DNA of 48,024 bases, filler included, from Jimgerdemannia flammicorona (taxonomy: Eukaryota), in the NCBI GenBank assembly GCA_003990765.1. It is 2 parts of 2 records of this genome, joined end to end, with 100 filler letters (N's around TTAATTAATTAA, not from the genome) between each part and the next. Parts side by side here need not be neighbours in the genome. Positions count along the whole stretch, not along the records: positions 24,065 to 48,024 come from RBNJ01001041.1; 1 more part is not named here. The stretch is one strand, 5' to 3'. Both the position numbers and the translations under genes were made by a program. Below the pieces are notes generated by a model. That model did not search any database, had not been told where the DNA came from, and was given only the letters and a program-made list of their open reading frames with translations. Every line of letters starts with the position of its first letter. Within the stretch, counting starts at the first letter, position 1. Shown one piece after another: positions 3,582 through 48,024 of this stretch.

Positions 3582-3583
<2 letters not shown>

Positions 3584-15889: not shown

Positions 15890-16070
15890 AATTCCTTACA
15901 AGCAATTTAAAAGATAACAAGATAGTTTAAAGATAAGAAGTTTGAAGACTATAAGACTTTGAGAAGATACTTCAATAAGAACTTACTTATAATAAACTTG
16001 AGTTAGTCTAAGAGATATATCTTGAAGAGAATCTGATATATTTGAAGGACTTAGTAATCACTATGTAACA
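15890..16070 (+). repeat. LTR 3'-end fragment of the G4 family
   Basis: About 180 bp aligns colinearly with 42913-43092 (e.g. AATAAGAACTTACTTATA..AAACTTGAGTTAGTCTAAGAGATATATCTT) and ends in TGTAACA. Confidence 0.8.
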
Positions 16071-16072
16071 TT

Positions 16073-16078
<6 letters not shown>

Positions 16079-16111
<33 letters not shown>

Positions 16112-16160
16112 TTTTTTTTTCTTTTTTTTTTATTTTTTTTCATTTTTTTTTTTTTTTCTT
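16079..16160. repeat. Interrupted poly(T) tract
   Basis: About 80 nt of T with isolated A/C interruptions. Confidence 0.9.
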
Positions 16161-16499
16161 CTTCTATATTTGAGATTTTCTATCATTGAGATTTATCTAT
16201 ATTCATTATTTTTATTATGATTTCTTATGTCTTAAGTATGGATAGATAGTATTCTTTTAGTATATTTATAGTTATTGCTTAGTTATTGCTTAGTTATATT
16301 ATATTCTCTTATATTATATTCATATATATTATCTCATTAAGCAGAAGTATTAAAATTTCTATTATTTTGACATCTTGATAATGTGACTTATATAACTATA
16401 TCATCTTTGAATTATATTACTTGATGTATAAATATGTTCTATCTGGAATAATAAATAATATTTCCTTTTCTCTCTACTCTATATTCTAACTAAGTTATA

Positions 16500-20889: not shown

Positions 20890-23800
20890 TGTAAGAGGGT
20901 TACTTTTTAGGGTAACCATTACGTAGTTCTGGAAAGGTTTTCTGGATATTCTGGATGTTCTGGAAGACCGTTTTCTTATGGTCAAGATCAATTTCGTATG
21001 GAGTACATCCTCTACGCTTATTGATTTCAAGATCGGGTTGACGTCTCAACCAAAGTCCTTTTCTGGACTAGTTCTGGATGTTCAGGATTTTCCGTATTTC
21101 AGGAAGTTCAAGAAACTAAGACCAGCTTAGTTGAATTGGCATATTGCTGCAGACAATACCCAATTAGGAAATTTCGTGATGGGGTTAGGAGTAGGACCTA
21201 ACAGGGAGCAGATTTACTTAAGAGTGGTTTGTGGGTTATGGAATAGGTTTATTTGCTATTTATGATATTGCTATACTAGGAGTATTTGTGTGAAGGGATA
21301 TTGTGGGGAAGTGCTCAGGAGTTGTGTTCGGATTGTTCAAGTCTGAGATTCTGAGGTCTGGGAGAGGGGGTATTTATACTAGTGAGGGGCTATCTGGACT
21401 ATGCTAAATATAGATGTAGCACTAAGTGCCTTGCTGAGTCGGAATGCAGTCACGTAGTATAAGTATGATCTGACATGTCAAGAGATCGTCTGACTGCTGA
21501 GTCAGTTCACAGTCACGTCATATAAGGCTAATCTATCTATACTATGACTGCTAGACTATTTATAGGTTTAGACACTGTCTGGGTAGTCTTTGATGACATC
21601 ACCATCGATTGCATCATCTCTGATGAAGTAGTCGTCTAGGAGGAGTGGTTCGCGGATTACTTCTCCTTGTTCACTGAGGTAGTAATATATTGAAACTTCA
21701 TCTCCATCCCACAGGATAGCATCGTCTGTTTCATATGCTGGATAAGGTGTTGGTGGGCAAAGGATGGGTGTATTGTCTTCACTTTCATTGGATTCACTAT
21801 CTGCATACCTTCTATAGGTTATGGCACTATGAGTTGTAGGGTTATAGTATGCTGGTGGCTGTGGTTCGTGTCACTCATACTCGGGTAGTGGAGTGGTTGG
21901 TTCGATCTCGAGGGTTGTCTGAAGGTACAGGTTGTGTTCTCCAGTCTCTTCATTATAATTGAAGTAATCGGGGGTGAATGCGGGTTGGTATTCGTGCCAG
22001 TGATCATTGCCCCAATAAGTCTTGTATGCAGTTATGAACTGTTGTAAGTTCATTGGCAAGGTTGGTAGAGTGATCAGGGTTGGCAGAGATCCTTGGCTAG
22101 AGGTCATGTCGGCGTCAGAGGGATCATTGTCTTCTGCTTCATCTTCATCGAAGTGGATTATATCGTAGACGTCCTTCATGACATATCCAACTTGAGGCAT
22201 TTGCAGGATATGGTCGTCAGGGTGCGGGAAGGTTCTGTCTGTGGTCTGGACATATTCGAGGTACTTGTGGTTGATTTCTTGTATCATGTCATCGATTTGG
22301 CCATAGGACAGGGTAGCAACCATTTCGCTGGTAGTAACTCAGAGGTGGGAAATAAAGGTGTTGTACTCATAGAAGAGTTCTTGATGTTTGTGGGCGATGA
22401 GCTTCTGGTGTTGAGACATCTGGGTAATATCTGTATCATGGTGGTGTTCGACCATGTCTTCCAGGAGGTGGCCAATCTGGTAGTAGCTTGAGATTTGTCC
22501 GATTCGGTGGGCCTCGCTAAGCATGTTCAGGGCGTTCCATCAGGCTTCCACGAAGTAGAGGGGTGCCAGGCTATGGATATTCATGAGGGGCAGAGGGGGT
22601 GTGGCTCGGTTGACAATGGCATTCCAAATGTCAGTGCGGATATGGTTGTAGATCTCGGTGGTCATATTTGTGTGTTTGGAAGTTGTGGTTATTGTTTGTT
22701 TTGGTTTTCTGATTTGATGCGTCTCGGTGCTTGGTATATATGCATTTAGTCCTGATTGGTAAGGTTCCGTTTGTGTAGATCTTGTGTTCCGTGACTTCGT
22801 ATTGACTCAGCTTTATGTGCTGTGACTTCAGTTTGACTCAACTTCGTGATCAAGCAGGTGATTTCCAGGTTTATTCAGAGGTCGCATGTGATTTCAGTGG
22901 CTTGTTCAGAGGGTGACGTGTAATTTCGGTGGCTTGGAGGTTGTGTGCTTACAACTCTCCCCTTCTTAGCTTTCGATGTCCTTGTTGGGGCCTTCTAATT
23001 TGTTCTAGTGTTGTTATACTATTTAGGAGGTCAAAAGTCTGGTAAGGTCCATTTTTCTCAGAAAGTGACATGCTCATAGTACAGTTGCCTAACATGTTGG
23101 ATTTACACGTTAAAGGGTCATATGTTTAATGCCATACACCGGAAGTGATTCTGACGTCATTCACTGCTGGAGAATTTCCTCTAAGGAATCTTCTTAAATG
23201 TCTATACCTCGTTTCCCACCAGTAGTATGGGAAGAATAGGCTTGCTTTCAGTTTTGCTATTTTTCCAGGGATTCAGTAGTCTTGTCTAGTTTTGCTGAGT
23301 TCTCGACTTAGTTCATGATAGTTATAATGTTCAGGAGGGTAATATATAGTATGTATAGATAGGTGCAGAGTTTTTGGTTCTAGTTGTTCAAGGAATCATA
23401 TTCCTGAACTAGGTCAGTAGCATTCTGGAGATTGGTCTTGGGTTCCCAGATTGCATCATGGATCGAGTAACCTTTCCATTTGACAAGGTACTTGAGATGG
23501 TTCTTGTTGCCACATTTGTTGAGGATTTGTTCAACTTCATACTCTTCTTGGTCATTAATAATGACAGGTGCAGGTGGTTTGGTGGTCCGATTTGGAAATA
23601 GCTCATCATTATTGTTATTGTATTGCTTGAGACATTGAACATTAAAGACTGGGTGAATCTTAATGGTATCTGGTAGTGTCAGTTTGTAGGAGGTTGGAGA
23701 GACTCATGCAATGACTTCGAATGGTCCAATGAACTTGCTGTTCAGCTTTGTAGATGGTCTGTGCTTGAGGTTGTCAACTCGGTATCCTCTGATGTCCAGT

Positions 23801-23964
23801 AGAACTTTTTCTCCAATATCAAAGGTTTCTTCTCGGCGGTGTTGGTTAACATACTGTGACTGTTGTTCTTGAGCTCGTGATAAATTCTCAATTGCGATCT
23901 GGCTTAGATTGCGCATTCGGAGTAGGAATTCTTCAACAGCTTCGACTGTGGAGGGTTCTTCAGT
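20890..23964 (-). mobile_element. G3: 3' part of a chromodomain-bearing Ty3/Gypsy element with a 2064-bp 3' LTR (22953-20890)
   Basis: Integrase C-terminus KLNSKFIGPFEVI (23704-23916) and chromodomain EEYEVEQIL...YLVKWKGYSIHDAIWEP (~23420-23550). PPT AAGAAGGGGAGAG lies immediately before TGTAAG at 22953. The other end at 20890 is the inverted TGTAAG, exactly where G2 protease coding stops. Confidence 0.85.
21568..22665 (-). pseudogene. 365-codon extra ORF of unknown function inside the G3 LTR, broken only by three TGA codons
   Basis: One frame runs from ATG 22665 to TAA 21570-21568 and joins track ORFs 22339-22524 and 21871-22323. Internal stops are at 22542, 22341 and 21873, all TGA, compatible with CGA>TGA. 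Confidence 0.8.
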
Positions 23965-24064
23965 NNNNNNNNNNNNNNNNNNNNNNNNNNNNNNNNNNNN
24001 NNNNNNNNTTAATTAATTAANNNNNNNNNNNNNNNNNNNNNNNNNNNNNNNNNNNNNNNNNNNN
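23965..24064. other. Artificial assembly linker N44-TTAATTAATTAA-N44
   Basis: Symmetric 100-nt spacer containing the six-frame stop oligo used to join contigs. Confidence 0.97.
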
Positions 24065-25390
24065 TTATAGTCCCTTGGACTCCATCTTTATTACCAGTCT
24101 ATGAATAAGTATACAATATCACCACCCACTATCCGATCCCCATCGGGGGGCCCCTCCCCACCTCTTCACATATAAAGACCACTCTCTCACTAACTACTCC
24201 AACTCTCCCACCACTCTGACCACAGATTTTCACCACCAAGCAGTACCTCCAACCCCTCTGCAGCCCCCAACCAAGCCACCAGCCTGTCAAGGTATCCTCC
24301 ATACGGCACTGCCACCTTGATAACCTGCTCCCCAAGCTCTGTTGCCTCTCCTCCTTAAATACAAATAGCCAGTAACTGGCCAGCCCAACCCAAATAGCCA
24401 ACACCCAGCCTAGAGTAATCCACTCCTCCCCTACCCCTCCTACCAACCGATCCCTCAGGTCCTCCCACCTCCCCCATATACCATCACTCCAACGTCTTAC
24501 CCCCAAGCGGTCCCCAATAGCCTGCCAAAAGACTTCCAACACCTCACACTCCCCTAGCCAATGTTCTGGTGTCTGTACAAATCCCCCTTCCTGCCCTACA
24601 TTATGGCACTCCTCATAGTCAAAGCTGCCCCCTACAACAAGGTGTCCTGAGCAGAAGTTAAGCATCACATTCCTCCTCAGCATGCACCACCAGACTACCC
24701 AGTACTTTGGCGGCATCCAATTTTTCACCACGGCACTCCAGGTCCAAACCCCATGCCAGTCCCACTCCTCACCAATTTCTACTCCTTGCCAACTGCTAGG
24801 CCACAGGTCCTGGCCTGGGCCCCTTCGGCACTCAATGCCATCACTAATATCAAACTCAAGTAAAGGCGTGCCTCCCAGAAGAATGCCATCCCATCTCCAC
24901 ATCGCCGGGCCTCAAGCCCTCTCCCCCTCATTCCCTCACCAGCAAATACCGATGCAGTGAGCTCTCTCAGCTATCCCCCACCAGAAGCCTTTATATCTCA
25001 GTTGTGCAGTGTTCTGAAGCCCAACTAATGAAAGGAGATCCCCAGTCAAGCCTCTTGGAGAAGTCCACCTCTCCCAAACCTTCTGCAGCAGGGGGACCCA
25101 GCCCCCTCTGCATAACTCCACTACCCTCCGAAGCCACCATACCCTCAAGCAGTGTAGTCGTTTGGAGAAGTCCACCAGCCCAAGACCACCTCTTGCCACC
25201 AGTAGAGACAAAGTCTCCCAATCAATCTGGCTCCGTCTGCCAGCCCAAATCCATCCTTTGGCCACCTTCACCAGTCTCTTCACCACCCAGGCCAGGAAGT
25301 CCAGATGATAAGCCAAGTACCACAGCTTCGGCAGCCAGTATACATTCAAAATGAGATTCTTCCTGCCAGAGAGAAGTATCTTCCCCCCCC
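24065..25390 (-). mobile_element. 5'-truncated LINE copy (L1/Tx1-like ORF2 C-terminus) abutting G4 protease coding sequence
   Basis: Contains LILNVYWLPKLWY...GGLGLVDF and a Cys/His relic EECHNV...TPEHWLGEC. Its 3' end GTAATAAAGATGGAGTCCAAGGGACTATAA matches the termini at 3481 and 4490; the poly(A) would fall in the gap. Confidence 0.88.
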
Positions 25391-27437
25391 CAAGATGGTC
25401 TATGTCATAGTGGATGATATATGAGCTACCTCCCTTGGCAAAATCCAAGAAGTCCCCATCAAAATAGAAGAAGCTACTACCCCAGTAGATGTGATTGTTA
25501 CAAGCACCACCAACTATGACATCCTCATTGACAACCAATAACTTCACAAGACCAAGGCCATCATTGACCTCAATGCCCAGAAAATGCAGATCAACTATAG
25601 AGGAAGAAAGGTATAAGTTTCTATCAATATCCACAAAGGAGTCCTATTAGACATAAAGAAAGGAGATGAAGAGGATATAGAAGTCTTCATATACTCAGTG
25701 AACAAGAATAAGAATAAGAACAAGACACCCAAGCTTACAGATGAGCAGTAGTACAACAAAATCATTGATGGCTATACCCCTCAAGAAAGATGCCCCTATG
25801 GTACTAGGATGTACTGCTCTGAACACCTGAATGACTGCTAGTCCTGTATCAGTGAAGTCAGAAAAATCTGTCAACAGAAACATAAGTAAGAAGCTGCTGA
25901 AGTAAAAAGGAAAGCTGAAGAAGATGACTAGCCCCCCAAGCTTCAAGCTGATAGTGATAATAAGAAAGAACAAGAATCAGACATCACCCTCAAGGTCAAG
26001 AAGTTTCATCCCCAAAGCCAAGATCCCAGAATATAAGACTGAAGGAGCCATAGGAATGGACCTTACCAGCATTTAAGATACTACTCTCAAACCACAGACC
26101 ACTACTCTACTTGGAACTGGAATTGGAGTCAAGTTGCCAGAGAACCATGCCAGAATTATCAAGACTAGGAGCAGTCTGGCCAAAAGCAAAATCTCAGTTG
26201 AAGGAGAAGTAATTGACCCTGATTACACTGGTGAGATCTTCCTCATAGTCAGGAATCACAACCCTACCATCTCATTTGAAGTCAAGAAATATAACAGAAT
26301 TGGCCAGATGCTGATCTATAAAATTAAGAAGCCTAAGATCACTGAAGTCATCAAACTCATCAAGACCAAGAGAGAAGAACAAGGCTTTAGATCTACTGGA
26401 AGAGAAGCCTATGCTACTACCAAGATTACTGAACTTGAGCATAAGAAAGACAGGGATCAGAATAAGTACACATATACTATTGGAGAAAACTTTTCCCTAG
26501 AAGAACAACTTTTCAAGATCCTGCACCAGAATGAAGGAGTACTTACTACAGACTTCAGGGATATCCATAATCAAGAACCCAAGTACTACTATAAAGTTAA
26601 TACTGGTGATACCAAGTCCATCTACCAGAAAGCCAGACCTATACCACTTGCCTATAGAGAATGGCTGTAAGCAGAACTCAAGGAAATGAAAGAAGCTAAA
26701 ATCATCAAGCAAGCTATTAGTCTCTGGGCTTCACCCATTGTCCTTGCTCTGAAGAAAGAAAGTAAGTCTGGAGAGTTTGCACCAAGACTCTGCATTAACT
26801 ATAGGAAGCTCAATATAATTACCAAGAAGGATAGACAGCTCTTGCCAAATATTCAAGAAATCCTTACCACTCTTGGAAGCAAAACTAAATACTACACTAC
26901 CTTGGATCTATTCTCAGACTTCTATCAGATTGGTCTCACTCAAGATGCCAGTGAGAAATCAGCCTTCATCACACCTGATGTCACCTATATCTACCTATGA
27001 ATGCTATTTGGAATGTGCAATGCCCCAGCAAGTTTTCAGTGAATGATGAATAGAGTCTTCAGTAATGAGATTGGAAAATAGCTCTTTATCTATATTGATG
27101 ATGTGATCATCTTTAGCAATACTGCACAGGAACATGTCAACCACATATAGCTAGCTCTCAAGAAGCTCAAGGAGTATGGCCTCTACATCAAGCCCAAGAA
27201 ATACAAGTTTGCAGCTCAAGAAATTGTCTACCTAGGACACCTCATCAACCAGACCAGAATTCACACAGACTCCACAAAGATTGAGGCTATTGTAGCCTAC
27301 CTGAGACTCAAAACAACCATAGAAGTCTATGTCTTCCTTGGACTGGTCAGCTACTACAGAAGATTCATCAAAGGATACTCTAACATTGCAGCACCTATCT
27401 ATGAGCTACTGAAGAAGGAAATCAAATTCAAATAGAC

Positions 27438-30400
27438 TGTAACATTTTAGCATAGTTTATTTCTTTTCTTCATCTTTCTTCAATATTCTATGACCTTCTG
27501 GTATTTTCCAAATGCTTAGAAATCCTTTTTTGGCACTGAGCATCCTCTGGTACTTATTTAGCTAGTCACTGATTGTTCTGGAAACTTATAGAACTTTATT
27601 TGTCATCATTTGTCATCTTTGCTAAGAACTTTCCTCTTAGCATTTTCCTTTGATTTCTCAGATCCTTCCAGATTCTTCTTTCAGATCTTATATAAATATC
27701 CCCTTTGTTCTTATGAATAAAGTCTCAAAATATTTTCTTTCAGAAATCCTTCGAGAATACTTAAGTCTTTAAGTATCTCTTTGAGCTACTTAGGACTACC
27801 AGAACTAGTCGCTTCCTTATTTAGAAACTAGAACTATTATACTTGGTAGCAGCAGTTAAGTTACACCTAGCCTTATCAAGACACCTCTCAAGATATCAGT
27901 CACAACACTATGGAGGACAATGGGTAGAACCCTTCATACAGTATCTATGGTCTGGGTAATACTTCATACTATCAGCAAGAAGAAGAAGAACAGCAAAACC
28001 CTACTCAGTCAAACAGGGCCATCGAGAGTCTCTTGCAGACTGCACTAGCTCAGATTGCTCAACTTCAAGAATGCATAGAAAGAAAGGAAAGCAAGGCCTC
28101 CACTCATACCTCTGTATCTTCACCAACATCAATATATCCAACAGCAGTCACTATTAAGCCTCAGAAGCCTGACACCTTTGATGGTCAAAGAGGAGGACTA
28201 TCTACTGATGCTTGGCTTTTCCAATTGGAGCAATATGGAGAACTGACCAATTTGGAAGAAGCAACACTAGTCCAATTTGCCGCCATACTCCTCCGAGGGA
28301 ATACTGCAATCTGGTGGCAAAATCATGTCCAGAATACCAGATTCTCTAGCCAAATCAAGATCTGGGGTGAATTCTCTGATGCTATTCAAGGCCAATTCAA
28401 ACCAGTCAATAGCACCAAGGCCATGTGAGACCATCTGGCAAATGTCAAACAACTCAAGTCTGTGCAAGCATACAATACACGATTCCTGTTAATTCTGCTA
28501 GAACTACTACATGTCACTGAAGACAAGAAGGTCAACAAGTACATCTGAGGCCTGAAAGATCAAATCTGAGTTTGTGTTGAACTAGAAGAACCCAAGGACC
28601 TAGATACAGCAATGAAAATTGCTGATAGGTTTGATGTTATTACCTATGGTCATCGCTTTGAACAGAAGAGACCACCTTTCAACAACAACAACTACAGAAG
28701 GGAGGAACCCAAAGTCAGAACTGTTGGACCTGCCCCTATAGACCATAGACCTAGACACCATTGATAAGAACAAGAAAGGCAAGCTTACACCCAAGGAAAA
28801 GGAGTGCCTCAAGAAGGCTGGAGCCTGCTTCTTTTGCCATCAGCCTGGTCACATTGCAACCAAATGTCCCAAGAAAACTACCAAACCAAAGAGGATTCTG
28901 GTCCTGTCCAAAGACACCCAAGGTCAACTAGTTGAATAAGAAGTTATACTCAATTTCATACAAGTCAACCCCAAGGCTCAGATCCCTCAAGTACAATCAG
29001 AAGGAGCTATTGGTTTAGACCTTCAAGCAGGACAACAAGTCACTATTCCAGCATATGAGAGAAGGCTCATTCCAACTGGCCTTTCAGTCAAAATCCCCAA
29101 GGAACATTATGCAAGAATTGCACCAAGATCTGGCCTCAGTTTCAAGCACTCATTGGATGTTGGTGCTGGAGTTATTGACCCTGACTTCTGAGGTGAAATG
29201 CAAGTCCTGCTAGTCAACCACAAGAACCAATCATACACTGTCAATGAAGGTGACAGAATTGCACAGCTCATTCTGGAGCGAGCCACCCTACCAGTCATCC
29301 AACCAAGTAAGATCAGAAATGCTTTGGCAGTACTGACAAAGTTGCAAGCATAGCTGAGAACCAAGCCAATTCAATACTCATTTTCAAAGGTCTAGTCAAG
29401 GGACAAGAGCTAGATATTCTCATAGATAGTGGAGCTGTTGGGAACTTCATCAACAAGAACCTCATCAACAAGCTCAAGATTCTCACCAAACCAGTTAGCA
29501 AGAATGGTGGAGTTGTCACGGCAGATGGCACCACCTTACCAATTGACTCAATTGCCACTAAACTTCCCCTCAAGATCCAGAAGTACTGGAAATGTTTAGA
29601 TTTTGAGGTAGCACCACTAGGAGATCATAACCTGATCCTAGGCAAACCCTGGCTTATACGGCACAACCCTCAGATTGATTGGACCAAGAATGAAGTCACC
29701 TTGATTTAGGATGGAGCCAATATTACCATCAAGCCAGACAAGACTCAGATGAGAACCCCAATTGCTACCCTTTTGGCAATTCAGTTCAAGAAGGCCCTCA
29801 AGAAAGCTACCTGTGCCTTTGTAGCACTGATTCAATCAAAGAAAGAAGACAAGAAGCTATCAATTAGTGAAAGCATCAAGTTACTGCTAAACAAGTACAA
29901 GAATGTCTTCCTGGACAAACTACCAGACCTACCACCATTAAGAGACCATAACCACAAAATCAAGTTGGTACCTGATGCAGCTATACCTAAGAAGAAAATG
30001 TACTACATGTCCCCACTTGAAATTGAAGCAGTCAAGAAGGAACTCAATGAACTCATTGAGCAAGGAGCCATTCAACCAAGCAAGTCACCCTTTGGCTCCC
30101 CAGTCCTATTTGTCAAGAAAAAGGATGATACTCTGCAAATATGCATAGACTATCAAGCACTCAACAAGATCACAGTCAAGAACCATTATCCACTACTGCT
30201 CATAGATCAAATCTTTGATGCTCTCAAGAATGCAAAGTACTTCACTAAGATTGATCTCACCTCTGGGTATCACCAAATTCTAATCAAGCCAGAAGACATA
30301 CCCAAGACTGCCTTCATAACACTCTTTGGACTCTACAAATTCCTAGTCATGGTCTTTGGTCTCACCAATACACCAGCAATCTTTCAAGATCTCATGCAAA

Positions 30401-33400
30401 CTGTCTTCAAGGACCAGCTCTATATCTTTATACTTGTATATATTGATGACATCTTGATCTTCAGTAGTACTGAAGAAGAACACCTCAAGTACATTGAACA
30501 AGTCCTCAAGATCCTCCACAAGAACAAGCTCTACCCAAAGCTCAAGAAATGTGAATTTTTCAAAGATCAAGTCGAATACCTTGGACATATTGTATCAGCC
30601 AAAGGAATTCAAGTAGACCCAAGGAAAATACAAGCCATTGAACAGTGGCCTGTACTAGCAAACCTCACTGAACTCAGGTCCTTCCTTGGTCTGGCTGGAT
30701 ACTACTATCGATTTGTCAAGAACTTCTCTGGCATCACAGAATCTTTGACAAACCTCCTGTGAAAGAAACCTAACTCTAACCTCTATGTCTCCTATATCTG
30801 GGATGCTTTCTGTCAACAAGCTTTTCAAGAACTCAAGAACTGCCTGACCCATGCACCTGTTCTTAGAAATATGGACCCAAACTTGAAGTTTACGGTCACT
30901 ACAGATGCATCTAACTTTGCCATTGGTTCAGTCATTTCTCAAGATAATGATCAAGGACACTGACCTATTGTCTTTGAGTTAAGAAAATTGTCTCCAGCAG
31001 AACAAAAGCTGACTACTCATGAAAAGGAACTTCTGGCAATCATGCATGCCCTCAAGATCTAGTGATACTATCTAGAAGGAGTTGAGTTCAATGTGATCAC
31101 CAATCACAGGTCCCTTCAGTACATCAACACTCAACTAACCCTTTCTCGCCAATAAGCCAAGTGGAGCCAACTACTTCAGACCTTTACCCCAAACATCATC
31201 TATAAGCCTGGCAAAACTCTAGTTGTATCAGATACACTTTTAAGGAGACCTGACCTTGCTGCAATTTTACAAGTCACCATGGCACCTGAATTCCTCAACC
31301 AGATCAAGAAGGCATATGAACAAGACTCTCTGGTTCTACAAAGGAACACTAAGGAATTCAAGAAAAAGTACACCATCAAGGACAATCTCATGTACTATCA
31401 AGATAAAGTATATATTTCTGCCAACTCTGAACTATGGTACAAGATTCTTCACAAACATTATGACTCCCCACTAGCTGGCCATCTTGGAACTGAGAAGACC
31501 ATCAAGAATATTCAACGAGACTACTACTGACCAAACATACTCAAGGAAATCAAGGAGTATGTCCAAAGTTGCAATCTTTGCCAAAGAAACAAGTCAAGCA
31601 ACCAAGCACCTGCCGGTCTTCTGCAACCTCTGCTAATTCCAACCAAGAGGTTCAAACAAGTCACAATAGACTTCATTGTGCAACTCCTATGAACCAAAAC
31701 AGGCTATGATGCTATTGTTGTGTTTGTGGACTATCTCACCAAGATTACAATTGCCAAGCCAACCACAACCAATGCCACTGCCCCAGAAATTGCAAGAATC
31801 TTCTTCAAGACTGTCTTCCACCATTATGAACTTCCCTGAGTAATTATCAACAACTGTGACCCCAAGTTCACAAGTCACTTCTGGTAAGCACTCTTCAAGA
31901 TCCTTGGAATCCAAATTGCTATGTCCATTACCTTTTATCCTCAAACTGATAGACAGACAGAGCAAATGAACAGAATACTTGAACAAATGCTCAGAAACTA
32001 TATGTCTTATGAGTGAGATGATTGGGATCACTATCTGACCTATGCCAAGTTTATCTACAATAATGCTAACTAATTATCAACTGGCCTTTTCCCATTTCAG
32101 CTACTTCATGGTCAAAAACCTGAGACCCCTGCAAGCCTAGTCCAATTCTAGCAATCCAGTCACACACAAGTCCCCACAGCTCAGAATCTTATCAACAAAA
32201 TGGATTCCCTTCTCAAGATTGTTACTATGAACCTACAAAAGGCTCAGCAATATCAAGCTAAGTATGCAGATAAGAAGTAGTGAGATGTCATATACAACAT
32301 TGGTAATATGGTTCTACTCAAAGCCGACAACATCAAGGCTCAATCTCAAGTCAACTGCCAGTTAGCCAAATTTCAGCCCAAGTACCTTGGACCCTTTGAA
32401 ATCACCAAGCAAGTCTCTACCTGATCTTACCATCTCAACTTGCCAACAACCATGTGTATATACCCAGTATTTCATGTGTCACAACTCAAGGCCTAGAACC
32501 AGTCACCCCCATACCCTGGCCAAATTCTAACACCATCAGCACCAGTCATAGTTAAAGACCACATCGAGTATGAAGTCGAGAAAATCTTAGATAAATATGT
32601 CTGATACTGTCGCACAGAATACCTAGTCAAGTAGATGGGTTACCCTAAATATGATACCATCTGGGAACCTGCTGCCAATCTCAAGAACTCCCAAGATCTC
32701 ATCCAAGAGTTCAAGCAAAAAGGAACTCATTAACTGCTCATGAGGTTCTCCCTTTAGATAGTAGATAACCTACTGTGCTGATCAGGCACATTATGCATCA
32801 GGGCTCTCTAAGGAATACAGTATCAGAAATAAAAGATATAGGAGAACCCTACAAATTCTGCAACCAACAAGGTTCAAACCAGTTCTCATCTGATCAAGAT
32901 GATACTTTGGCCCTCACCTTATACAAGGATGGCCAATCCTTGCCAATGAGTTGGTATATTTAATTTGAAGTTTCTTTTAGTCTTATTGTTTATTATGTGT
33001 AACTTTGAGAATTCAACAAGGACATTGATTCTTAAGAAGGGAGAGATGTAATATTTTAGCATAGTTTATTTCTTTTCTTTGTCTTTCTTCAATATTCTAT
33101 GATCTTCTGGTACTTTCTGAATGTTTAGAAATCCTTTCTTGGTGCTGAGCATCCTCTAGTACTTATTTAGCTAGTCACTGATTGTCCTGGAAACTTGTAG
33201 AACTTTATTTGTCATCATTTGTCATCTTTGCCAAGAACTTTCCTCTTGGCATTTTCCTTTGATTTCTCAGATCCTTTCAGATCCTTCTTTCAGATCTTGT
33301 ATAAATATCCCCTTTGTTTCCATAAATAAAATCTCAGAATATTTTCTCTCAGAAATCCTTTGAGAACACTTGAGTCCTTAAGTATCTCTTTGAGCTACTT

Positions 33401-33450
33401 AGGACTACCAGAACTAGTCGCTTCCTCATTTAGAAACTAGAACCGTTATA
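27438..33450 (+). mobile_element. G5a: full-length chromovirus-type Ty3/Gypsy element (gag-dUTPase-PR-RT-RNaseH-IN-chromodomain), inactivated by stops
   Basis: 404-bp LTRs at 27438-27841 and 33047-33450; TSD TAGAC/TGGAC; PBS TGGTAGCAGC (27844-27853, initiator tRNA-Met-like); PPT before 33047. Motifs: CFFCHQPGHIATKC, IAPRSGLS..GVIDPDF, LIDSGA, YIDD (ORF 29749-30762), EYEVEKILDK..YLVK. Confidence 0.95.
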
Positions 33451-34699
33451 TGGACCAAGGAATGCCAAGAAACCTTCAATGAACTCAAGACCAGATTGAC
33501 CCAAGTACCTATCCTCAGAAGACCAGATTGGAACCTAGAATTCATCCTGCAGACAGATATAAGTGCTATAGGACTTGGAGCAGTCCTAGCTTAGAAGAAA
33601 GATGGACATGAATATGTTATCTCCTATGCAAGCCAAGATATCTGCAGAGCAGAACAGAACTATGAGTTATGTAAGCTTAAATGCTTAGCAGTAGTTTGGG
33701 CAGTAGACAAGTTCCACTACTACCTAGCCAGGAAACACTTTACTATTCAAACAGACCATTCTGCTCTTACCTGGTTATTCTATACTCTGAACCTCAAAGG
33801 AATATATATCAGATAGATCTACAGACTATAAGAGTATGACTGTACTGTCAAGCACTGCTCAGGAAGAACCAACATCAATACTGATACACTCTCAAAGATA
33901 CTCTAAAATACCCCCATCAAGACTATTCAACATAAATAAGGAGTTATACTATAGATTAATTAGCTACCTTGGGCAGCAAAAGATATCCAACCCTGGATAA
34001 TCACTATTATCAACCAGACTTAGAAACAATTTGAACTAGACAACACTACACTTAGAAAAGAAGGAAAGCTAGTAATACCTGAATACAAGAAGTATCAAGT
34101 AATGAAGAAAGTACATGAGCAAGGACACCTAGAAGGAACCAATACATATGACAAGACAAGAAGAACTATATGGTGATCCAAAATGGAAGAAGACTTGTGC
34201 CAATTTGTTAAAGGGTGTGACAAGTGCCAAAAACAGAAACAAGATCAGCAAGACTAGACACTCAGGTCATCAAGAATTGAGTCTATCTCCTTCTACTACA
34301 TTGCAATGGATATCATTGGGCCATTATCAGTAACACTATCAGAAAACTACTATATTATAGTTATGGTAGACCTCTTTACCAAATGGATAGAAGTAGAAGT
34401 ATTACAAGAAGCCAATGCCCTCTCTATAGCTGACTTCCTGTACCAAGAAATCATCTGTTGCTACAAGACACTGAAGTAAATCACAATAGACCATAGTACA
34501 GAATTTGTCAATGGATTCTACAAGATAATGTATCAGAAATACATGATTCAGCACATCAAGACTACCATGTACCACCCTCAAGAAAATGGACAGACAGAGA
34601 GAACCAACAAGACCCTCAAGAACATCCTGGTGAAGATCTCAGAGATATACAAGAATTGGAATAACTACCTCTCAACTGCCCTCTCTATCCTATGAGACA

Positions 34700-37600
34700 T
34701 GTAATGGTTCTAGTTTCTAAATGAGGAAGTGACTAATTCTGGTAGTCCTAAGTAGCTCGAAGAGATACTAAGGATTCAAGTGTTCTTGAAGGATTTCTGA
34801 GAGAAAATATTCTAAGACTTTATTTATGAGAACAAAGGGGATATTTATACAAGATCTGAAAGAAGGATCCAGAAGGATCTGAGAAATCAAAGGAAAATGC
34901 CAAGAGGAAAGTTCTTGGCAAAGATGACAAATGATGACAAATAAAGTTCTACACATTTCCAGGACATTCAGTGACTAACTAAATAAGTACTAGTTAATGC
35001 TCAGTGCCAAGAAAGGATTTCTAAGCATTCAGAAAGTACCAGAAGGTCATAGAACATTGAAGAAAGACAAAGAAAAGAAATAAACTATACTAAAATATTA
35101 CATCTCCCCCTTCTTAAGAATCAACATCCTCATTGAATTCTCAAAGTTACACATAATAAACAATAAGACTAAAAGAAACTTCAAATTAAATATATTGACT
35201 CATTGGCAAGGATTGGCCATCCTTGTATAAGGTGAGGGCCAAAGTATCATCTTGATCGGATGAGAACTGGTTCGAACCTCATTGGTTGCAGAATTTATAG
35301 AGTTCTCCTATATCTCTTGCTTCTGATACTGTATCTCTTAGAGAGCCCTGATGCATAATGTGCCTGATCAGCACAGTAGGTCATCTACTATCTAAGGGAA
35401 GAACCTCATGGGCAGTCAATGAGTTCCTTTTTGCTCGAACTCTTAGATGAGGTCTTGGGAGTTCTTGAGATTGGTGGCAGGTTCCCAGATGGTATCATAT
35501 TCAGGATAACTCATCTACTTGACTAGGTATTCTGTGTGATGGTATCAGACTCGTTTGTCTAAGATTTTCTCAACTTCATACTTGATGTGGTCTTCAACTA
35601 TGACTGGTGTTGATAGTATTAGAATTCGGCCAGGGTATAGTGGTGACTGGTTCCAGGCCTTAAGTTGTGATATATAGAATACTGAGTATATATGCATGGT
35701 TGTTGGCAAGTTGAGATGGTAAGACCAGGTAGAGACTTGCTTGGTGATCTCAAAGAGTCCAAGGTACTTGGGCTGGAATTTGGCTGACTGGCAGTTAACT
35801 TGAGATTGAGTCTTGATGTTGTCAGCTTTGAGTAGAACCATATCACTAATATTGTATATGACATCTCATTGCTTCTTATCTGTATACTTAGCTTGATGTT
35901 GCTGAGCCTTTTGCAGGTTCGTAGTGGTGATCTTGAGAAGGGAATCCATTTTGTCGATAAGGTTCTGGGCTGTGGGGACTTGTGTGTGACTGGATTTCTG
36001 GAATTGGACTAGGCTCGCAGGGGTCTTGGGGTTTTGACCGTGAAGTAGCTGGAATGGGGAAAGACCAGTTGATGATTGGATGGCATTATTGTAGATAAAC
36101 TCGGTGTAGGTCAGATAGTGGTCCCAATTATCTTACTCATAAGACATATAGTTTCTGAGCATTTGTTCAGGTATTCTGTTCATTCGCTCTGTCTGTCCAT
36201 TAGTTTGAGAATGGAAGGCAGTGGACATAGTGATTTGGGTTTCAAGGATCTTGAAGAGTACTTGCCAGAAGTGACTTGTGAACTTGGGGTTACAGTCACT
36301 GATAATTACTCAGAGAAGTCCATAATGGTGGAAGACAGTCTTGAAGAAGATTCTTGTAATTTCTGGGGCAGTGGCATTGGTTGTGATTGGCTCGGCGATT
36401 GTAATCTTGGTGAGACAGTCCACAAACACAACAATAGCATCATAGCCTGTTTTGGTTCATGGGAGTTGCACAATGAAGTCCATTGTGACTTGTTTGAACT
36501 TCTTGATTGGAATTGACAAGGGTTGTAGAAGACCAGCAGGTGCTTGGTTGCTTGACTTATTTCTTTGGCAAAGATTGTAGCTTTGGACATACTCCTTGAT
36601 TTCCTTGAGCATGTTTGGCTAGTAGTAGTCTCGTTGGATATTCTTGATGGTCTTCTCAGTTCCAAGATGATCAGCTAGTGGGGAGTCATGATGTTCATGA
36701 AGAATCTTGTACCATAGTTCAGGGTTGGCAGGAATATATACTTTGTCTTGATAGTACACGAGGTTGTCCTTGATGTATACTTTTCCTTAAATTCCTTGGT
36801 ATTCTTTTGTAGAACCAGAGAGTCTTATTCATACACCTTCTTGATCTGGTTGAGGAATTCAGGTGCCACAGTGACTTGTAAAATCATGGCAAGATCAGGT
36901 CTCCTTGAAAGTGCATCTGGTACAACTAAAGTTTTGCCAGGCTTGTAGATGATGTTTGGGGTGAAGATCTGAAATAGTTGACTCTACTTGGCTTGTTGGC
37001 GAGAAAGGGTTGGTTGAGTGTTGATGTACTGAAGGGATCTGTGATCAGTGATCATGTTGAACTCAACTCCTTCTAAATAGTGTCACCAGATCTTGAGGGC
37101 ATGCATGATTGCCAGGAGTTCCTTTTCATGAGTAGCCAACTTTTGTTCTGCTGGGGACAATTTTCTTAACTCAAAGACAATAGGTCAGTATCCTTGACTA
37201 TCATCTTGAGAAATGACTGCACCAATGGCAAAGTTAGATGCATCTGTAGTGACCGTGAACTTCAAGTTTGGGTCCATGTTTCTAAGAACAAGTGCATGGG
37301 TCAGGCAGTTCTTGAGTTCTTGAAAGGCTTGTTGACAGAAGGTATCCCAGATGTAGGGGACATAGAGGTCAGAGTTGGGTTCCTTTCGCAGGAGGTTTGT
37401 CAAAGATTCTGTGATGCCAGAGAAGTTCTTGACAAATCGACAGTAGTATCCAGCCAGACCAAGGAAGGACCTGAGTTCAGTGAGGTTTGCTGGTATAGGC
37501 CACTGTTCAATGGCTTGTATTTTCCTTGGGTCTACTTGAATTCCTTTGGCTGATACAATGTGTCCAAGATATTCGACTTGATCCTTAAAAAATTCACATT

Positions 37601-40600
37601 TCTTGAGCTTTGCATAGAGCTTGTTCTTGCAGAGGATCTTGAGGACTTGTTCAATGTGCTTGAGATGTTCTTCTTCAGTACTGCTGAAGATCAGAATGTC
37701 ATCAATATGCACAAGTACAAAGATATAGAGCTGATCCTTGAAGACAGTTTGTATGAGGTCTTGAAAGATTGCTGGTATATTGGTGAGACCAAAGGCCATG
37801 ACTAGAAGTTTGTAGAGTCCAAAGGGTGTCATAAAGGTAGTCTTGGGTATGTCTTCTGGCTTGATTCGAATTTGGTGATACCCAGAGGTGAGATCAATCT
37901 TGGTGAAGTACTTTGCATTCTTGAGAGCATCAAAGATTTGATCTATGAGTGGTAGTGAATAGTGGTTCTTGACTGTGATCTTGTTGAGTGCTTGGTAGTC
38001 TATGCACATTTATAGAGTATCATCCTTTTTCTTGATAAATAGGACTGGGGAGCCAAAGGGTGACTTGCTTGGCTGAATGGCTCCTCACTCAATGAGTTCA
38101 TTGAGTTCCTTCTTGACTGCTTCAATTTCAAGTGGAGACATGTGGTACATTTTCTTCTTAGGTATAGCTGCATCAGGTACCAACTTGATTTCGTAGTCAT
38201 AGTCTCTTGAAGGTGGTAGGCCAGGTAGATTGTCTGGGAAGACATCCTTGTACTTGTTCAGTAGTAACTTGATGCTTTCACTAATCAATAGCTTCTTGTC
38301 TTCTTTCTTTGGTCAGATCAGTGCCACAAAGGCATAGGTAGCTTTCTTGAGGGCCTTCTTGAACTGAATTGCTGAATGGGTAGCAATTGGGGTTCTTGTC
38401 TGAGTCTTGTCTGGCTTGATGGTAATGTTGGCTCCATCCTAAATCAAGGTGACTTCATTCTTGGTCCAATCAATCTGAGGGTTGTGCCATGTAAGCCAGG
38501 GTTTGCCTAGGATCAGGTCATGGTCTCCTAGTGGTGCTACCTCGAAATCTAAACATTCCCAGTACTTCTGGATCTTGAGGGGAAGTTTAGCGGCAATTGA
38601 GTCGATTGGTAAGATGGTGCCATCTGCAGTGACAACTCCAGCTAGTTTGGTGAGAATCTTGAGCTTATCAATGAGATTCTTGTTGATGAAGTTCCCAACA
38701 GCTCCACTGTCTATGAGAACATCTAGTTCTTGTCCCTTGACTAGACCTTTGAAAATGAGTATTGAATTGGCTTGGTTCTCAGTTATGCTTGCAACTTTAT
38801 CAGTACTGCCAAAGCCTTTCTGATCTCGCTTGGTTGAAGATAGCTTGGTGACTTCTTTGATGACTGGTAGGGTGGCTCGCTCCAGAATGAGCTGTGCAAT
38901 TCTATCTCCTTTATTGATAGTATATAGCTGGTTCTTGTGGTTGACTAGCAGGACTTACATTTCACCTTGGAAGTCAGGGTCAATAACTCCAGCATCAACA
39001 TCTAATGAGTGCTTGAAACTGAGGCCAGATCTTGGTGTAATTCTTGCATAATGTTCCTTGGGGATTTCGACTGAAAGACCAGTTGGAATGAGCCTTCTTT
39101 CATGTGCAGGGATAGTGACTTATTGTACTGCTTGAAGGTCCAAACCAATGGCTCCTTCTGACTGTACTTGAGGGATCTGGGCCTTGGGGTTGACTCACAT
39201 GAAATTGAGTACAACTTCTTGTTCAACTGGTTGATCTTGAGTGTCTTTGGACAGGACCAGGATCCTCTTTGGTTCAGCAGTTTTCTTGAGACATTTGATT
39301 GCAATGTGACCAGACTGACAGCAAAAGAAGCAGGCTCCAGCCTTCTTAAGGCACTCTTTTTCCTCAGGTGTAAGCTTGCCTTTCTTGCTCTTACCGATGG
39401 TGTCTAGGTCCATGGGGGCAGGTCCAACAGTTCTGACTTTGGGTTCCTCCCTTCTGTGGTTGTTGTTGTTGAAAGGCGGTCTCTTCTGTTCAAAGTGGTG
39501 ACCATAGGTGATGACATCAAACCTATCAGCAATCTTCATTGCTATATCTAGGTCCTTGGGTTCTTCTAGTTCAACACAAACTCAGGTTTGACCTTTCAGG
39601 CCTCAGATGTACTTGTCAACCTTCTCATCTTCAGTGATATGTGGTAATTCTAGCAGGATTGATAGGAATTGTGCATTATATACCTGCACAGACTTGAGTT
39701 GTTTGACATTTGTCAGATGGTCTCATGTGGCCTTAGTGCTATTGACTGGTTTGAATTGACCTTGAATAGCATCAGAGAATTTGCCCCAGGTCTTGATTCA
39801 GTCAGAGAATCTGGTATTCTGGATATGATTTCACTATCAGATTGCAGCATTCCCTCAGAGGAGTGTGGCAGCAAATTGGACTAGTGTTGTTTCTTCCAAA
39901 TTGGTCAGTTCTCCATATTGCTCCAATTGGAAAAGCCAGGCATTGGTAGACAGTCCTCCTCTTTGACCATCAAAGGTGTTGGGCTTCTGAGGCTTGATAG
40001 TAACTGCTGTTAGATATATTGATGTCAGTAGAGGTGCAGAGGTATGAGTGGGGGCCTTGCTTTCCTTTCTTTCTACATGTTTTTGAAGTTGTGCAATCTG
40101 AGCTAATGTGGTCTGCAAAAGACTCTTGATGGACCCAGTTGACTGGGTGAGGATTGGCTGTTCCTCTTCTTCTTCTTGCTGATGGTACTGATTATATGAG
40201 GTATTGCCTGGACCATAGGTACTGTATGAAGGGTTCTACCTATTGTCCTCCATAGTATTGTGACTGATATCTTGAGAGGTGTCTTGATAAGGCTAGGTGT
40301 AACCACCCACTGTTACTAAGTGTAATGGTTCTAGTTTCTAAATGAGGAAGCGACTAATTCTGGTAGTCCTAAGTAGCTTAAAGAGATACTAAGGATTCAA
40401 GTGTTCTTGAAGGATTTCTGAGAGAAAATATTCTGAGACTTTATTCATGAGAATAAAGGGGATATTTATACAAGATCTGAAAGAAAGATCTGGAAGGATC
40501 TGAGAAATCAAAGGAAAATGCCAAGAGGAAAGTTCTTGGCAAAGATGACAAATGATGATAAATAAAGTTCTACATGTTTCCAGGACATTCAGTGACTAAC

Positions 40601-40722
40601 TAAATAAGTACTAGTTAATGCTCGGCACCAAGAAAGGATTTCTAAGCATTTGGAAAGTACCAGAATGTCATAGAATATTGAAGAAGACAAAGAAAAGAAA
40701 TAAACTATGCTAAAATGTTACA
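34700..40722 (-). mobile_element. G5b: second full-length copy of the G5 family, inverted relative to G5a
   Basis: LTRs at 40321-40722 and 34700-35102; perfect TSD AGACA (34695-34699 and 40723-40727); PPT at 35103-35115. RT ORF 37185-38009 is nearly identical to G5a. Confidence 0.95.
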
Positions 40723-41758
40723 AGACATATGGTTACAGAGCATACACTTTACCTCAAGAGAACTGCTCTACAGAGAAGAAGATTCTGATGGAACCTCAGC
40801 TACAAATCTAGACCTAACTTGGAGATAGGTCAATGTAAAAATCCAGAGACTACACTAAATCAAGAAGAAGGCTGAAGATTACATCATCAAGTTATAAGCA
40901 CTGATAAGGAAAAATGCAGAAAAGAATCACAAAACCCTAGAACCCATCCAAATCAGAAAAAAGGTCCTACTGTATCAAAATATAATAGAAGCCTCATGGT
41001 TATGAAAACTGGAGCCCAAATAGAAAAGACCCTTCTACATATAAGATATCAAGGGAACTATCTTCTGGCTTAGAAAAATCTCAGAGACCATACTGCCTAC
41101 CATGGTATATAGGAACAGACTCAAGAAGTACCATGAACCTATACATATAAGAGAAGCAAAATATAATGACTGCCTGTGAGGTTCTAGTCCATGAATCATA
41201 ATAGCATGTCTCATGACCAGCAGGCTATCTATCTGGACCATTCTCTAAGGAATACAATACCAGCAACTACTCATTCATAAGACTTTCAAAGCCAGAGAAG
41301 TTCAAACTATCAACTGATTGGTCAATATCAGAATAAGGCCCTTGCTCTATATGAAGAGAGTAATCCTTCACTATTATGCCAAAATATAAAGAGAAGATGT
41401 TAGTCTATAAATACCACTTTTCAACCCCTTGCCAGAGGTTATGGGATTAGCAAATTTTTCAGAACTAGACCAATGAATAAGGATATTTAAGAAGATCCTT
41501 ATTCAGGAGGAAGATATAACAGTGATCTCAGAATAATGACATCAACACAAGAGACAGCCTTTTCTTGCAAGCCACCAGATCAGAGCACAAAAAGATCATA
41601 TGGCATACAAGATGAGCAATGATGACTAACTATGAGTTATTGTGACCACAGTATAAGTATCTTGAGGAATATAAAAGAAGGATCAAGAAACTGCAGTAGC
41701 AGTAACCAACAAGACCCACTAATCCCAAAATAGCTCAAAGACTTACCATAAATGAAAT

Positions 41759-42616
41759 GCCTACTGCTCACCAAACCTCAAGGTCAAGGAACTACAAGAC
41801 ACCTCAGTTGAAGAAAGAATATTCCAAGACATCAGAAGAGTCATGAGGACCCACTCAAGAAGGACTCCTAGTATCAATCTGGGTACTGGTGACTCTTATT
41901 ATTATATCCTCTACTACTGTAAAATGAAAACAAGGATCACCATTACTACTGAATACCTCCAAATGTGACAGGAGTATGAGATAGGAAATCTTCTCTGCCA
42001 GGAGTTCCCACTGACCAGTACTTAAGAGCTACAAGATACCATTCCTATGGATATATGCAAAATAAGGACAGCTAAGAAGATCTATCAGATTATCAGGCAT
42101 ACACCATAGTCAATTCCTAACTTGGAGTATGTTAAAGTCTCAGACTTCAGAGACCTGTTAGCTCACTATATCAATGCACTAGAAGCCAGGGTGGCTATAG
42201 AAGTCCAGTCTACTATCACTCTCAATAGTGATGAAGTAGAAGACTTCTGGCATCCCATTCTCCAGAACAACCCAGACCAATTCATATAAGGATTGATCTC
42301 AGTATTCTAAGGTTCAAGCATCCAAGTTAGACCTCTCTAAGACCCCACATTTGTCCCCTATTTTGTAGAAGAGAACCTCATAGACTAGAGAGCCCCAGAT
42401 CTCCTTGTTCTCACTACTGCTGAATGTGATGATGTCATTGGCAATGATGTCATCCCATGTGACATATGCGAGACACATGATATATATGAGATGCACAACA
42501 TATATGAAATATGTAATCTATATGACAACAGTGAATTTGTGGACCTCATCTCCTTCAAAGATATTCTGATCTCTGATGAGAATGAAGTTCCTATGGTCTT
42601 GAACATTCTGCTCTAA
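41759..42616 (+). pseudogene. Decayed extra ORF (>=286 codons) in the putative G4 3' LTR
   Basis: A single frame with scattered stops: IFQDIRRVMRTHSRRTPSINL...YEIGNLLCQEF...IRTAKKIYQIIRHTP*SIPNLEYVKVSDFRDLLAHY...QSTITLNSDEVEDFWHPILQNN, with an acidic C-terminus. Confidence 0.75.
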
Positions 42617-46700: not shown

Positions 46701-48024
46701 GGGAGCCATCATTTGGTGTTTTATCCTATGTCTCGTCAAGAAGTTCTTGAACTGATTATTAACGTACTCCTTGCCGTTATCTGAGCGTAGTGCTCGAATT
46801 TTACGTCCGGTCTCGTTTTCGACGATAGCCTTGTATTCTCCGAATTTTTCCAAAGCTTCGCTCTTCGCCGCCATAAGGTATACGTAGACCTTGCGCGTAT
46901 AGTCGTCGATGAACATAATAAAATACTTCTTCCCGGAGTGTGATTTATTTCTCGCAGGTCCCCATATGTCTGAGTGTACCAAATCGAGTATCCCTGAGGC
47001 TCGTTTCGTCCGTTCCTGGAAGGGTTGTTGACAGGCCTTGTTCATTGTGCAATCATCACATGGCATATAGTCCGGGCATAAGTTGTCCGAGAGTCCGCTC
47101 ACCAAACCGTTCCTTATCATACGTTCGAGGCTTATCGGGCTGATATGTCTGAGTCTCCGGTGCCAGGTATACGCTACGCTGGTCGTTCCAGACCACGCTG
47201 CATTTGCCGCAGCTGCACCACTCGGCGTTCCGTTTATTGCGTATAAGTATCCATGCTTCCTGGTCGTTAATGCTTCTTTGCCATCGAGATCGTATATCTT
47301 CACGCCATCGCATGTTCCTGAGATTCGCTTATCCCCTCGTGCTAGCGTTCGACCCATCGAGAAGAGGTTCTTTCCTATCCCTGGAGCGTACAGTATGTCC
47401 ATAAAGGTCGCGTAGGGTTCCTTAACGTTTCCATGCAAATACATGCCGACCTGAGCGTATATAACCTTATTATTGCCCAATCTGATATGCATGGGGTTGT
47501 CAAAGGGTTCGTACATAGAGAACCACTCACGGTGTGAAGTCATATGCTGGGATGCGCCCGAATCTAGGAGCCAGATGTCCTCTTCGTCGCATGCAATGTT
47601 AGCGCTTGGTGTATACTCGTCTCTGGCGCTGGTGCACGTACTGTTTACGTCACCGCCACTTTTCACACCTTGAAAAGTATTCCGAATGTCAGGTTCCGTA
47701 GATGTCGAGCAAGCGCATTTGCAGGTAGAACTGGCACTGGTGGATGTAGAACTAGATCTCGTAGATGTCGGGGTGGCTTGCGCATTTTTCACCGGTCCAA
47801 AAGGGTCCGAATCTACATCGGCGAAGAACAATCCTCCCTTATCGGCGTTAGAATCTGCGCTATTCGCTTGCTTGCCACTCTTTCCTTTCTTTCCACTCTT
47901 GTCCTTTTCCTTTTTCATGCATTCATTCGCACGGTGTCCATACTTGCCGCAATAATAGCAGCTCCCGTCGAATTTCTCTGATTGGTCTTGGCCTTGCTGG
48001 CTTTTGTCGCGCTGGCTTTTGCCG
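43770..48024 (-). mobile_element. Young Ty1/Copia LTR retrotransposon (5' end outside window); short 3' LTR ~43770-43935
   Basis: Domain order is knuckle-PR-IN-RT-RNaseH. PPT GAGCGGGAG is followed by TGTTG at 43935. CpG content is retained. Confidence 0.95.
44274..48023 (-). CDS. Copia gag-pol polyprotein (partial), with one premature TGA at 44561-44559 in RNase H
   Basis: Motifs CYYCGKYGHRANEC, WLLDSGAS, WHRRLRH, LVHSDIWGP, RSDNGKEY, PQQNGVVER, YKARFVAKGYSQ, QMDVKTAFL, WVDD and DADWAGD..DRRST. After the stop the frame continues ...NQSTIALAKNPIHHARTKHIDI...ADSLTKAL to TAA at 44276-44274. Confidence 0.93.

Follow-up and report, generated by a model that had tools for sequence, protein, structure and literature searches.

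A conserved module at the pol end of two Gypsy lineages in Jimgerdemannia flammicorona points to an undescribed non-coding control element of unproven fold and function

Dimerisation sites of retroviruses and of Ty1 are short perfect palindromes in the 5′ leader that pair between two genomic RNAs. Other cis-acting RNAs of such elements lie towards the opposite end of the genome. The constitutive transport element (CTE) of Mason-Pfizer monkey virus (MPMV), the RNA transport element (RTE) of the intracisternal A-particle (IAP) and the MusD transport element (MTE) are non-coding modules between the last open reading frame (ORF) and the 3′ long terminal repeat (LTR); according to the available part of PMC12786077, the RTE and the MTE serve mouse LTR retrotransposons, and the MTE uses a pseudoknot together with long-range and kissing-loop contacts. 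The primer-binding site (PBS) of Ty3, a member of the Gypsy superfamily, is bipartite and split between the 5′ and 3′ ends: as the accessible text of PMC5371799 has it, the 3′ part pairs with the TψC arm of the primer tRNA, the D arm of which makes a further contact there. Retrozymes carry hammerhead ribozymes as a structured RNA motif in the LTRs of non-autonomous plant elements (PMC4918200, in the portion available). Here we describe a module of five short blocks (B1 to B5) located between the end of pol and the polypurine tract of Gypsy retrotransposons in a 48,024-nucleotide (nt) stretch of DNA, hereafter the window, that was joined from two parts of the J. flammicorona assembly GCA_003990765.1. 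Its properties point to a non-coding control element that has not been described before and whose fold and function are unproven.

The module resembles each of these systems only in part. With CTE, RTE and MTE it shares the location between the last ORF and the 3′ LTR, but it shows no sequence or covariance-model similarity to them, and it begins at the pol stop itself. The 3′ PBS segment of Ty3 is likewise RNA of the 3′ end but lies within U3, and the module is far longer than contact with a tRNA needs. The dimerisation palindromes of retroviruses and Ty1 are found in the 5′ leader, whereas the palindrome of the module is situated in the 3′ untranslated region (UTR), where its exposure in a loop is not supported by folding or cofolding. 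Unlike the retrozymes, the module matches neither a hammerhead nor any other ribozyme model. Literature searches returned no description of such an element, and the part of PMC6317226 that was available yielded general statements only.

The window is eukaryotic and dense with retrotransposons, which have decayed mostly by transitions. We mapped its elements by repeat finding and by tblastn with the pol sequence of one of them, G5a, a chromodomain-bearing Gypsy element (chromovirus) at 27438-33450 on the plus strand (LTRs 27438-27841 and 33047-33450, identical at 371 of 404 positions). A second copy of the same family, G5b, runs from 40722 to 34700 on the minus strand (LTRs identical at 381 of 403 positions), and both are nested inside G4, a plus-strand Gypsy element without a chromodomain. 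The reverse transcriptase (RT) proteins of the G4 and G5 families are only ∼37% identical, and the closest pol protein relatives reach ∼50% identity, with mixed taxa among the atlas matches. Each of the three elements carries one good copy of the module: 32731-32941 on the plus strand in G5a (nhmmer E 1e-72), 35208-35418 on the minus strand in G5b, the least decayed copy (E 3e-74; equal to G5a at 210 of 226 positions), and 41167-41368 on the plus strand in G4 (E 5e-54).

In G5a, all on the plus strand, B1 (TGACTGCCYRTGAGGTTCT) occupies 32731-32749, B2 (CTCTAAGGAATACA) 32806-32819, B3 32869-32880, B4 (GGCCCTCAC) 32909-32917 and B5 (AATCCTT) 32935-32941. The undecayed G5b form of B3, GAGGTTCGAACC, contains the 10-nt palindrome GGTTCGAACC, and B5 of G5 pairs with 32924-32930 as the 3′ side of a hairpin of 7 bp. 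The G4 blocks follow at 41167-41185, 41243-41256, 41297-41308, 41337-41345 and 41362-41368 on the plus strand. Start-to-start distances in G5 and G4 are 75/76, 63/54, 40/40 and 26/25 nt, so that three of the four intervals agree within 1 nt. Allowing up to three mismatches, B1 occurs at three sites in the window (32731 on the plus strand, 35418-35400 on the minus strand and 41167 on the plus strand) where ∼0.05 are expected, a count that none of 100 shuffles reached. B2 is exact at 32806 and 41243 and has two mismatches at 35343-35330 (minus strand), while B3 is exact at 35280-35269 (minus strand) and has two mismatches both in G5a (32869) and at 10699-10688 (minus strand) in a third element, G1. 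These pattern counts confirm the ordered blocks that a first-pass annotation had reported for G5a, G5b and G4.

The same annotation had placed the module right after the pol stop. This describes G5, where the first three bases of B1 are the stop itself (TAA at 32731-32733 on the plus strand in G5a, TGA in G5b and the other copies compared). It does not seem to describe G4, where the pol frame, with the tail ...RLKKYHEP..., apparently stops 9 nt inside B1 (41176-41178). The two lineages agree in position, with the pol stop within B1 and the end of the module 92 nt (G5) or 13 nt (G4) before the polypurine tract. The tract of G5a lies at 33034-33046 on the plus strand, next to the 3′ LTR. For G4 we read from the sequence a putative tract at 41381-41397 on the plus strand and a putative 3′ LTR from 41398 (TGTTAG), the start of which stays putative because no 5′ LTR copy of G4 was found within the window. 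At its 3′ edge (32924-32948), the G5 module carries two CCAAT motifs, GGCCAATCC and GCCAATGAG. One of them overlaps B5, and neither G4 nor G1 has them intact.

Between G5 and G4, the module is an island of similarity. A blastn comparison of the last 1.9 kb of G5b with 1.7 kb of G4 gave a single significant match, 35469-35190 against 41120-41387 (61% over 291 columns, E 3.5e-9; next best E 0.51), which bears out the earlier statement that the surrounding sequence does not align. Within the blocks, 52 of 61 positions are identical between G5 and G4, the other nine differ by transitions, and no transversion is present. The B3-B4 spacer, which has the same length (28 nt) in both families, shows 11 identities, seven transitions and 10 transversions, and the module spacers in general are near random between the two. 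Conservation is selective and concentrated in the blocks, not even along the module. At the "YR" position of B1, G5b has CA and G4 has TG; we do not count this difference as covariation because CA and TG are the products of one CpG decaying on either strand. Non-coding regions of LTR retrotransposons usually outpace the proteins in divergence; here, 61 bases are free of transversions in families whose RT proteins have diverged as far as stated above, and it is the sharing of the module by families diverged beyond DNA alignment that makes it of interest.

Transition-tolerant local alignment, scored against 200 dinucleotide shuffles, gave z values of 10.4 for G5b and G4, 6.2 for G4 and G1, and 5.3 for G5b and G1. 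The minus-strand element G1, whose RT lies at 13222-12404, has decayed heavily. Of the module copy that had been proposed at ∼10860-10635, its decayed 3′ half (B3 to B5, 10635-10699, minus strand) is recovered with an nhmmer E value of 0.056; the 5′ half is not securely alignable and B1 is not recognisable there. A hidden Markov model built from the three good copies and searched through the window matched only those three and this 3′ half. The B3-B5 part of G1 resembles G5, spacers included. Its LTR region (9624-10326, minus strand), however, is 64-66% identical to that of G4 (41667-42391, plus strand) over 560-730 nt, although the RT proteins of G1 and G4 score only ∼37%. The 3′ end of G1 may thus be a mosaic, and because a G4-like LTR is combined with a G5-like half module we count two clearly independent lineages and a mosaic or intermediate third, rather than the three Gypsy families of the first-pass annotation, whose observation of a shared module is partly confirmed. 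The 3′ UTR of G3, a further chromovirus fragment (22950-23952, minus strand; pol end near 23381), reached z values of only –0.5 and –1.6, and G3 therefore lacks the module. This fragment is less decayed and more GC-rich, and its spacer of ∼410 nt between pol and the polypurine tract is without any of the five blocks.

The composition of G1 bears on one alternative, namely that the module is a functionless remnant, carried from one family to another when reverse transcription switched templates, and is conserved in appearance only. A G4-like LTR next to a G5-like 3′ half hints at such mosaicism, and retroviruses are known to acquire 3′ elements by recombination (PMC11379458, in the part available). 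Neutral decay, however, would blur the module evenly, yet none of 61 block positions carries a transversion as against 10 of 28 in the spacer. Transfer would account for the sharing but not for the block pattern, and we regard a remnant as improbable.

Do the blocks and spacers belong to a folded RNA? The consensus-fold energy of the G5b and G4 module was compared with that of column-shuffled alignments, yielding z values of –3.2 and –3.3, with one and two of 300 shuffles as good. When the whole procedure was repeated on shuffled alignments, 13 of 36 pairs were compensatory against 6.0 ± 2.5 (two of 300 shuffles); with pseudo-replicated three rows the count was 15 of 62 against 8.4 ± 2.5 (four of 300). 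A version of the latter count that no shuffle out of 500 reached is circular, since the structure was derived from the same sequences, and is not relied on. The four hairpins quoted in the first-pass annotation are present, at 32886-32902 and 32917-32928 in G5a and at 41314-41331 and 41345-41358 in G4. The most convincing is hairpin Ha (32886-32902, plus strand; TCATC, loop tgatcaa, GATGA), the G4 counterpart of which is that at 41314-41331. All five of its base pairs differ between the lineages (UCAUC/GAUGA and CUGAU/AUCAG), while the loop core G-R-U-C-A-A is common to both, and folding with 150-nt flanks predicts its pairs with probabilities of 0.93-1.00 (G5) and 0.66-0.67 (G4). By these models, Ha is robust in both lineages and conserved through changed stems. 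A closing helix between the last pol codons and the stretch past B5 contains three compensated pairs. The motif UGAGGUUC is present twice per module, in B1 and in B3, and in both places its GAGG part has a complement in B4 (CCUCAC); as read from the sequence, G4 retains the match of B1 with B4 via two G-U pairs. The corresponding long-range pair GTGAGG/CCTCAC that had been suggested appears in the two-sequence consensus fold, but it cannot covary because both of its sides are invariant. A conserved fold is plausible from these two lineages at about the 1-in-100 level and is not established.

Based on these observations, we propose that the module belongs to the 3′ UTR of the genomic RNA as a non-coding element acting in cis through RNA-RNA contacts, and we put the probability of this reading at roughly 0.45. 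The module would occupy the 3′ UTR from the pol stop nearly to the polypurine tract. Selection on the replication cycle of the element would fix the five blocks and their spacing and leave the spacers free as long as local hairpins are kept. Invariant blocks at fixed spacing, joined by free but hairpin-keeping spacers, resemble the junctions and loops of folded RNAs and would be less typical of DNA sites. The invariant blocks would most likely act by RNA-RNA contacts. Undecayed B3 holds a perfect palindrome of 10 nt (RNA form GGUUCGAACC) that, unable to pair with itself within one molecule, could zip two genomic RNAs together or could alternatively pair with the T-arm of a tRNA. By itself, the palindrome suggests that genomic RNAs pair with each other or with a tRNA T-arm, or that a protein binds the DNA as a dimer; taken with the duplicated UGAGGUUC, it hints at RNA-RNA or primer-tRNA contacts. 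The role of the module would then be in the handling of genomic RNA before or during reverse transcription, be it dimerisation, packaging or a Ty3-style contact of the 3′ end with the primer tRNA. Within this proposal we would rank dimerisation or packaging and primer-tRNA contact ahead of export or stability. We observe how the module is conserved, where it lies, that it behaves as non-coding sequence and that hairpin Ha persists through changed stems; we infer that it acts as RNA in the first place, that its blocks pair with one another, and what it does.

A number of results weigh against this proposal. Our sample consists of two independent lineages and one decayed copy, all from one window, and the module is no general requirement of such elements because the chromovirus G3 lacks it. 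The opposite strand gave consensus-fold z values of –1.9 and –3.0, and since it is equally strong, the fold signal does not single out the sense RNA. As single sequences, the copies are unremarkable in stability (G5b z –1.85, nine of 200 shuffles as good; G4 z +0.45, 130 of 200). The 3′ hairpin that includes B5 has a probability of 0.70-0.76 in G5 but 0.04-0.08 in G4, and the probabilities of the closing helix and of the pairing of B1 with B4 drop to 0.00 with 150-nt flanks. Hairpins at equivalent spacer positions were not significantly more frequent than in shuffles (P 0.29 and 0.20, overall 0.23). The palindrome was not used in homodimer cofolds. Searches for complementarity between the 5′ and 3′ regions gave duplex energies within the range of shuffles, and the longest complementary runs, 9-12 nt, match a rough chance expectation in ∼6 kb. 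Finally, one reading frame of the module is poor in stops: from an ATG in G5a it stays open over 56 codons (32793-32960), G5b has one stop downstream of that ATG and two over the whole module, and G4 has one stop between the matching ATG and the ORF end and three over the whole module, as compared with three to seven stops per copy in each of the other two frames. The covarying structured RNA described in the first-pass annotation has modest support, from the column-shuffle signal of about 1 in 100 and from hairpin Ha; the equal strength of the opposite strand, the loss of the long-range pair with flanks and the positional test count against it.

The stop-poor frame raises the alternative of a small accessory protein of ∼56-69 residues, in the frame reading SLRNT..GSN..AL.LY. 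The spacings from B2 to B3 and from B3 to B4 also differ between G4 and G5 by 9 and 0 nt, which leaves these three blocks in phase. The amino-acid alignment scores of the open frame (41/35), however, are no better than those of the other in-phase frames (43/26 and 36/20), the blocks are identical even at wobble positions, and the spacers are unrelated as protein. The distance between B3 and B4 in G1, counted on the sequence, differs by 8 nt. The 56-residue peptide matched no Pfam family and had no relative among 1.84 billion protein representatives.

Sequence variation in public sequencing runs gives a further view of the coding question. Runs with shares of the stretch, at most 0.15, came from soil, root and plant metagenomes and from two coded organisms, and no RNA run is listed among them. 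Four of them, compared at 80% likeness over a 601-nt stretch, supplied 164, 8, 10 and 137 short contigs that together cover all of it; these contigs showed no joints and no sites where many molecules start or end. Differences were tallied by hand from the rows listed, to which all figures refer. In the pol part (32500-32730), 10 of 14 differences fall on third codon positions, while the 17 differences in the module (32731-32941) are split 5/6/6 over the three phases; inside the stop-poor ORF, four of 13 are on third positions. Position 32865 creates a stop in the stop-poor frame in all 14 contigs of one run. No listed difference falls in the core from B3 to B5 (32866-32935), although it is the deepest-covered part in two runs. 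The module does not behave as coding sequence, which upholds the core of the first-pass reading, a conserved non-coding element, and we consider a protein product very unlikely.

The lack of strand specificity in the fold signal is in line with another alternative, in which the blocks act as double-stranded DNA and offer sites to a dimeric host factor or to TFIIIC as a boundary or targeting signal. A perfect 10-bp palindrome would suit a dimeric DNA-binding protein, and the first-pass annotation had pointed out the resemblance of GGTTCGAACC to a B-box. The B-box consensus has one extra base between GGTTCGA and CC, unlike GGTTCGAACC, which counts against a TFIIIC site. No A-box-like motif was seen by eye, and ARAGORN found no tRNA gene in the window. 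The tight spacing and a hairpin with fully changed stems fit RNA better, and there is one module per element, internal and beside the 3′ LTR only. On balance, a DNA site appears improbable, about as much so as a remnant.

The palindrome also allows a more specific reading modelled on Ty3, in which the module is the 3′ half of a split PBS: base pairs of B3, and perhaps of other blocks, with the primer tRNA, in its T-arm or D-arm, would join the genome ends for minus-strand transfer. GGTTCGAACC is complementary to GGTTCGAA, the usual sequence of T-arm and loop in a generic consensus. A bipartite site is known from Ty3 in the same superfamily, and the PBS of G5 is of the tRNA type, beginning with TGGTAGCAG 2 nt past the 5′ LTR. 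The Ty3 site, in contrast, is within U3, whereas the module has already ended before the polypurine tract in G5a (33034/33047 for tract and LTR) and, putatively, in G4 (41381/41398). Sixty-one conserved bases far exceed what a T-arm and a D-arm could contact, and the window offers no tRNA by ARAGORN. We regard a split PBS as improbable.

In a further alternative, the module would promote nuclear export or stability of unspliced genomic RNA, by analogy with the MPMV CTE, the IAP RTE and the MusD MTE, and its repeated motif UGAGGUUC in B1 and B3 could recruit a host export or protection factor. Like those elements, it follows the last ORF and precedes the 3′ LTR. Against this, no Rfam family matches it by sequence or model, and the palindrome would be left without an obvious role. 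We consider this reading unlikely, if somewhat less so than the other alternatives.

Returning to the proposed cis-acting RNA, a more elaborate version would combine its parts into a two-state switch that is common to, and perhaps exchanged between, chromodomain and non-chromodomain Gypsy elements. The UGAGGUUC copies of B1 and B3 would compete for B4 (CCUCAC), so that the B3 palindrome is either held in the fold or freed to join the 3′ ends of genomic RNAs, and translation of the pol end, by unwinding B1, would couple to dimerisation or packaging. This is a speculative model to which we assign little weight. A role in RNA handling, if true, would add the module to the short list of cis-acting RNA signals known from Ty3/Gypsy elements other than those of yeast and mouse, and would offer a handle on steps that, according to the available part of PMC12786077, have not been directly studied for plant LTR retrotransposons, namely the nuclear export of their RNA. 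The module would in addition serve as a marker for tracing the exchange of 3′ ends between families.

Comparison with known RNA classes left the module unassigned. Rfam 15 gave no match at gathering thresholds in the whole window. In E-value mode, the G5b copy drew four noise matches (E 2.3-8.6) that scored 13-17 bits where the thresholds are 37-46; the G4 copy drew none. No ribozyme family scored in either the window or the module copies. The "unrecognised" of the first-pass annotation, which had named this search as a check and had found no fit to ribozyme cores, thus stands. A likeness to U6 snRNA, seen by eye, was rejected because no Rfam match supports it. We also discarded programmed frameshifting or readthrough into the module, as no slippery heptamer is visible by eye and stops follow within 8-13 codons.

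No homologue of the module was found in the sequence collections scanned (viral_contigs, genome_contigs and metagenome_contigs). The B1 pattern occurred at no locus of viral_contigs, at six of genome_contigs and at nine of metagenome_contigs, and none of these 15 had B2, B3 or B4 downstream. The pattern of B3 followed by B4 gave 99 loci in genome_contigs and four in viral_contigs, none of the 103 with B1 or B2 upstream; these were dismissed as GC-rich prokaryotic chance matches. An RT-based locus search of viral_contigs returned no match.

Some features of the window are recorded here for orientation. G5a and G5b are inserted in opposite orientation inside a single G4 (24100-42400), the pol of which is split into three pieces; the target duplications read TAGAC/TGGAC for G5a and TGTCT for G5b. 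Two 44-base runs of N, at 23965-24008 and 24021-24064, mark the junction of G3 and the start of G4. A Copia-type element occupies 44274-48023 on the minus strand. Its main ORF (44559-48023) has 1154 codons and runs off the window end, followed by a short piece of 94 codons (44274-44558); this family is poorly represented in public protein sets, since its best protein relative is only 47% identical. Two arrays of short-period repeats, at 3483-3618 and 16051-16171, are mutually inverted, translate to poly-K runs and adjoin a LINE-like reverse transcriptase at the window start.

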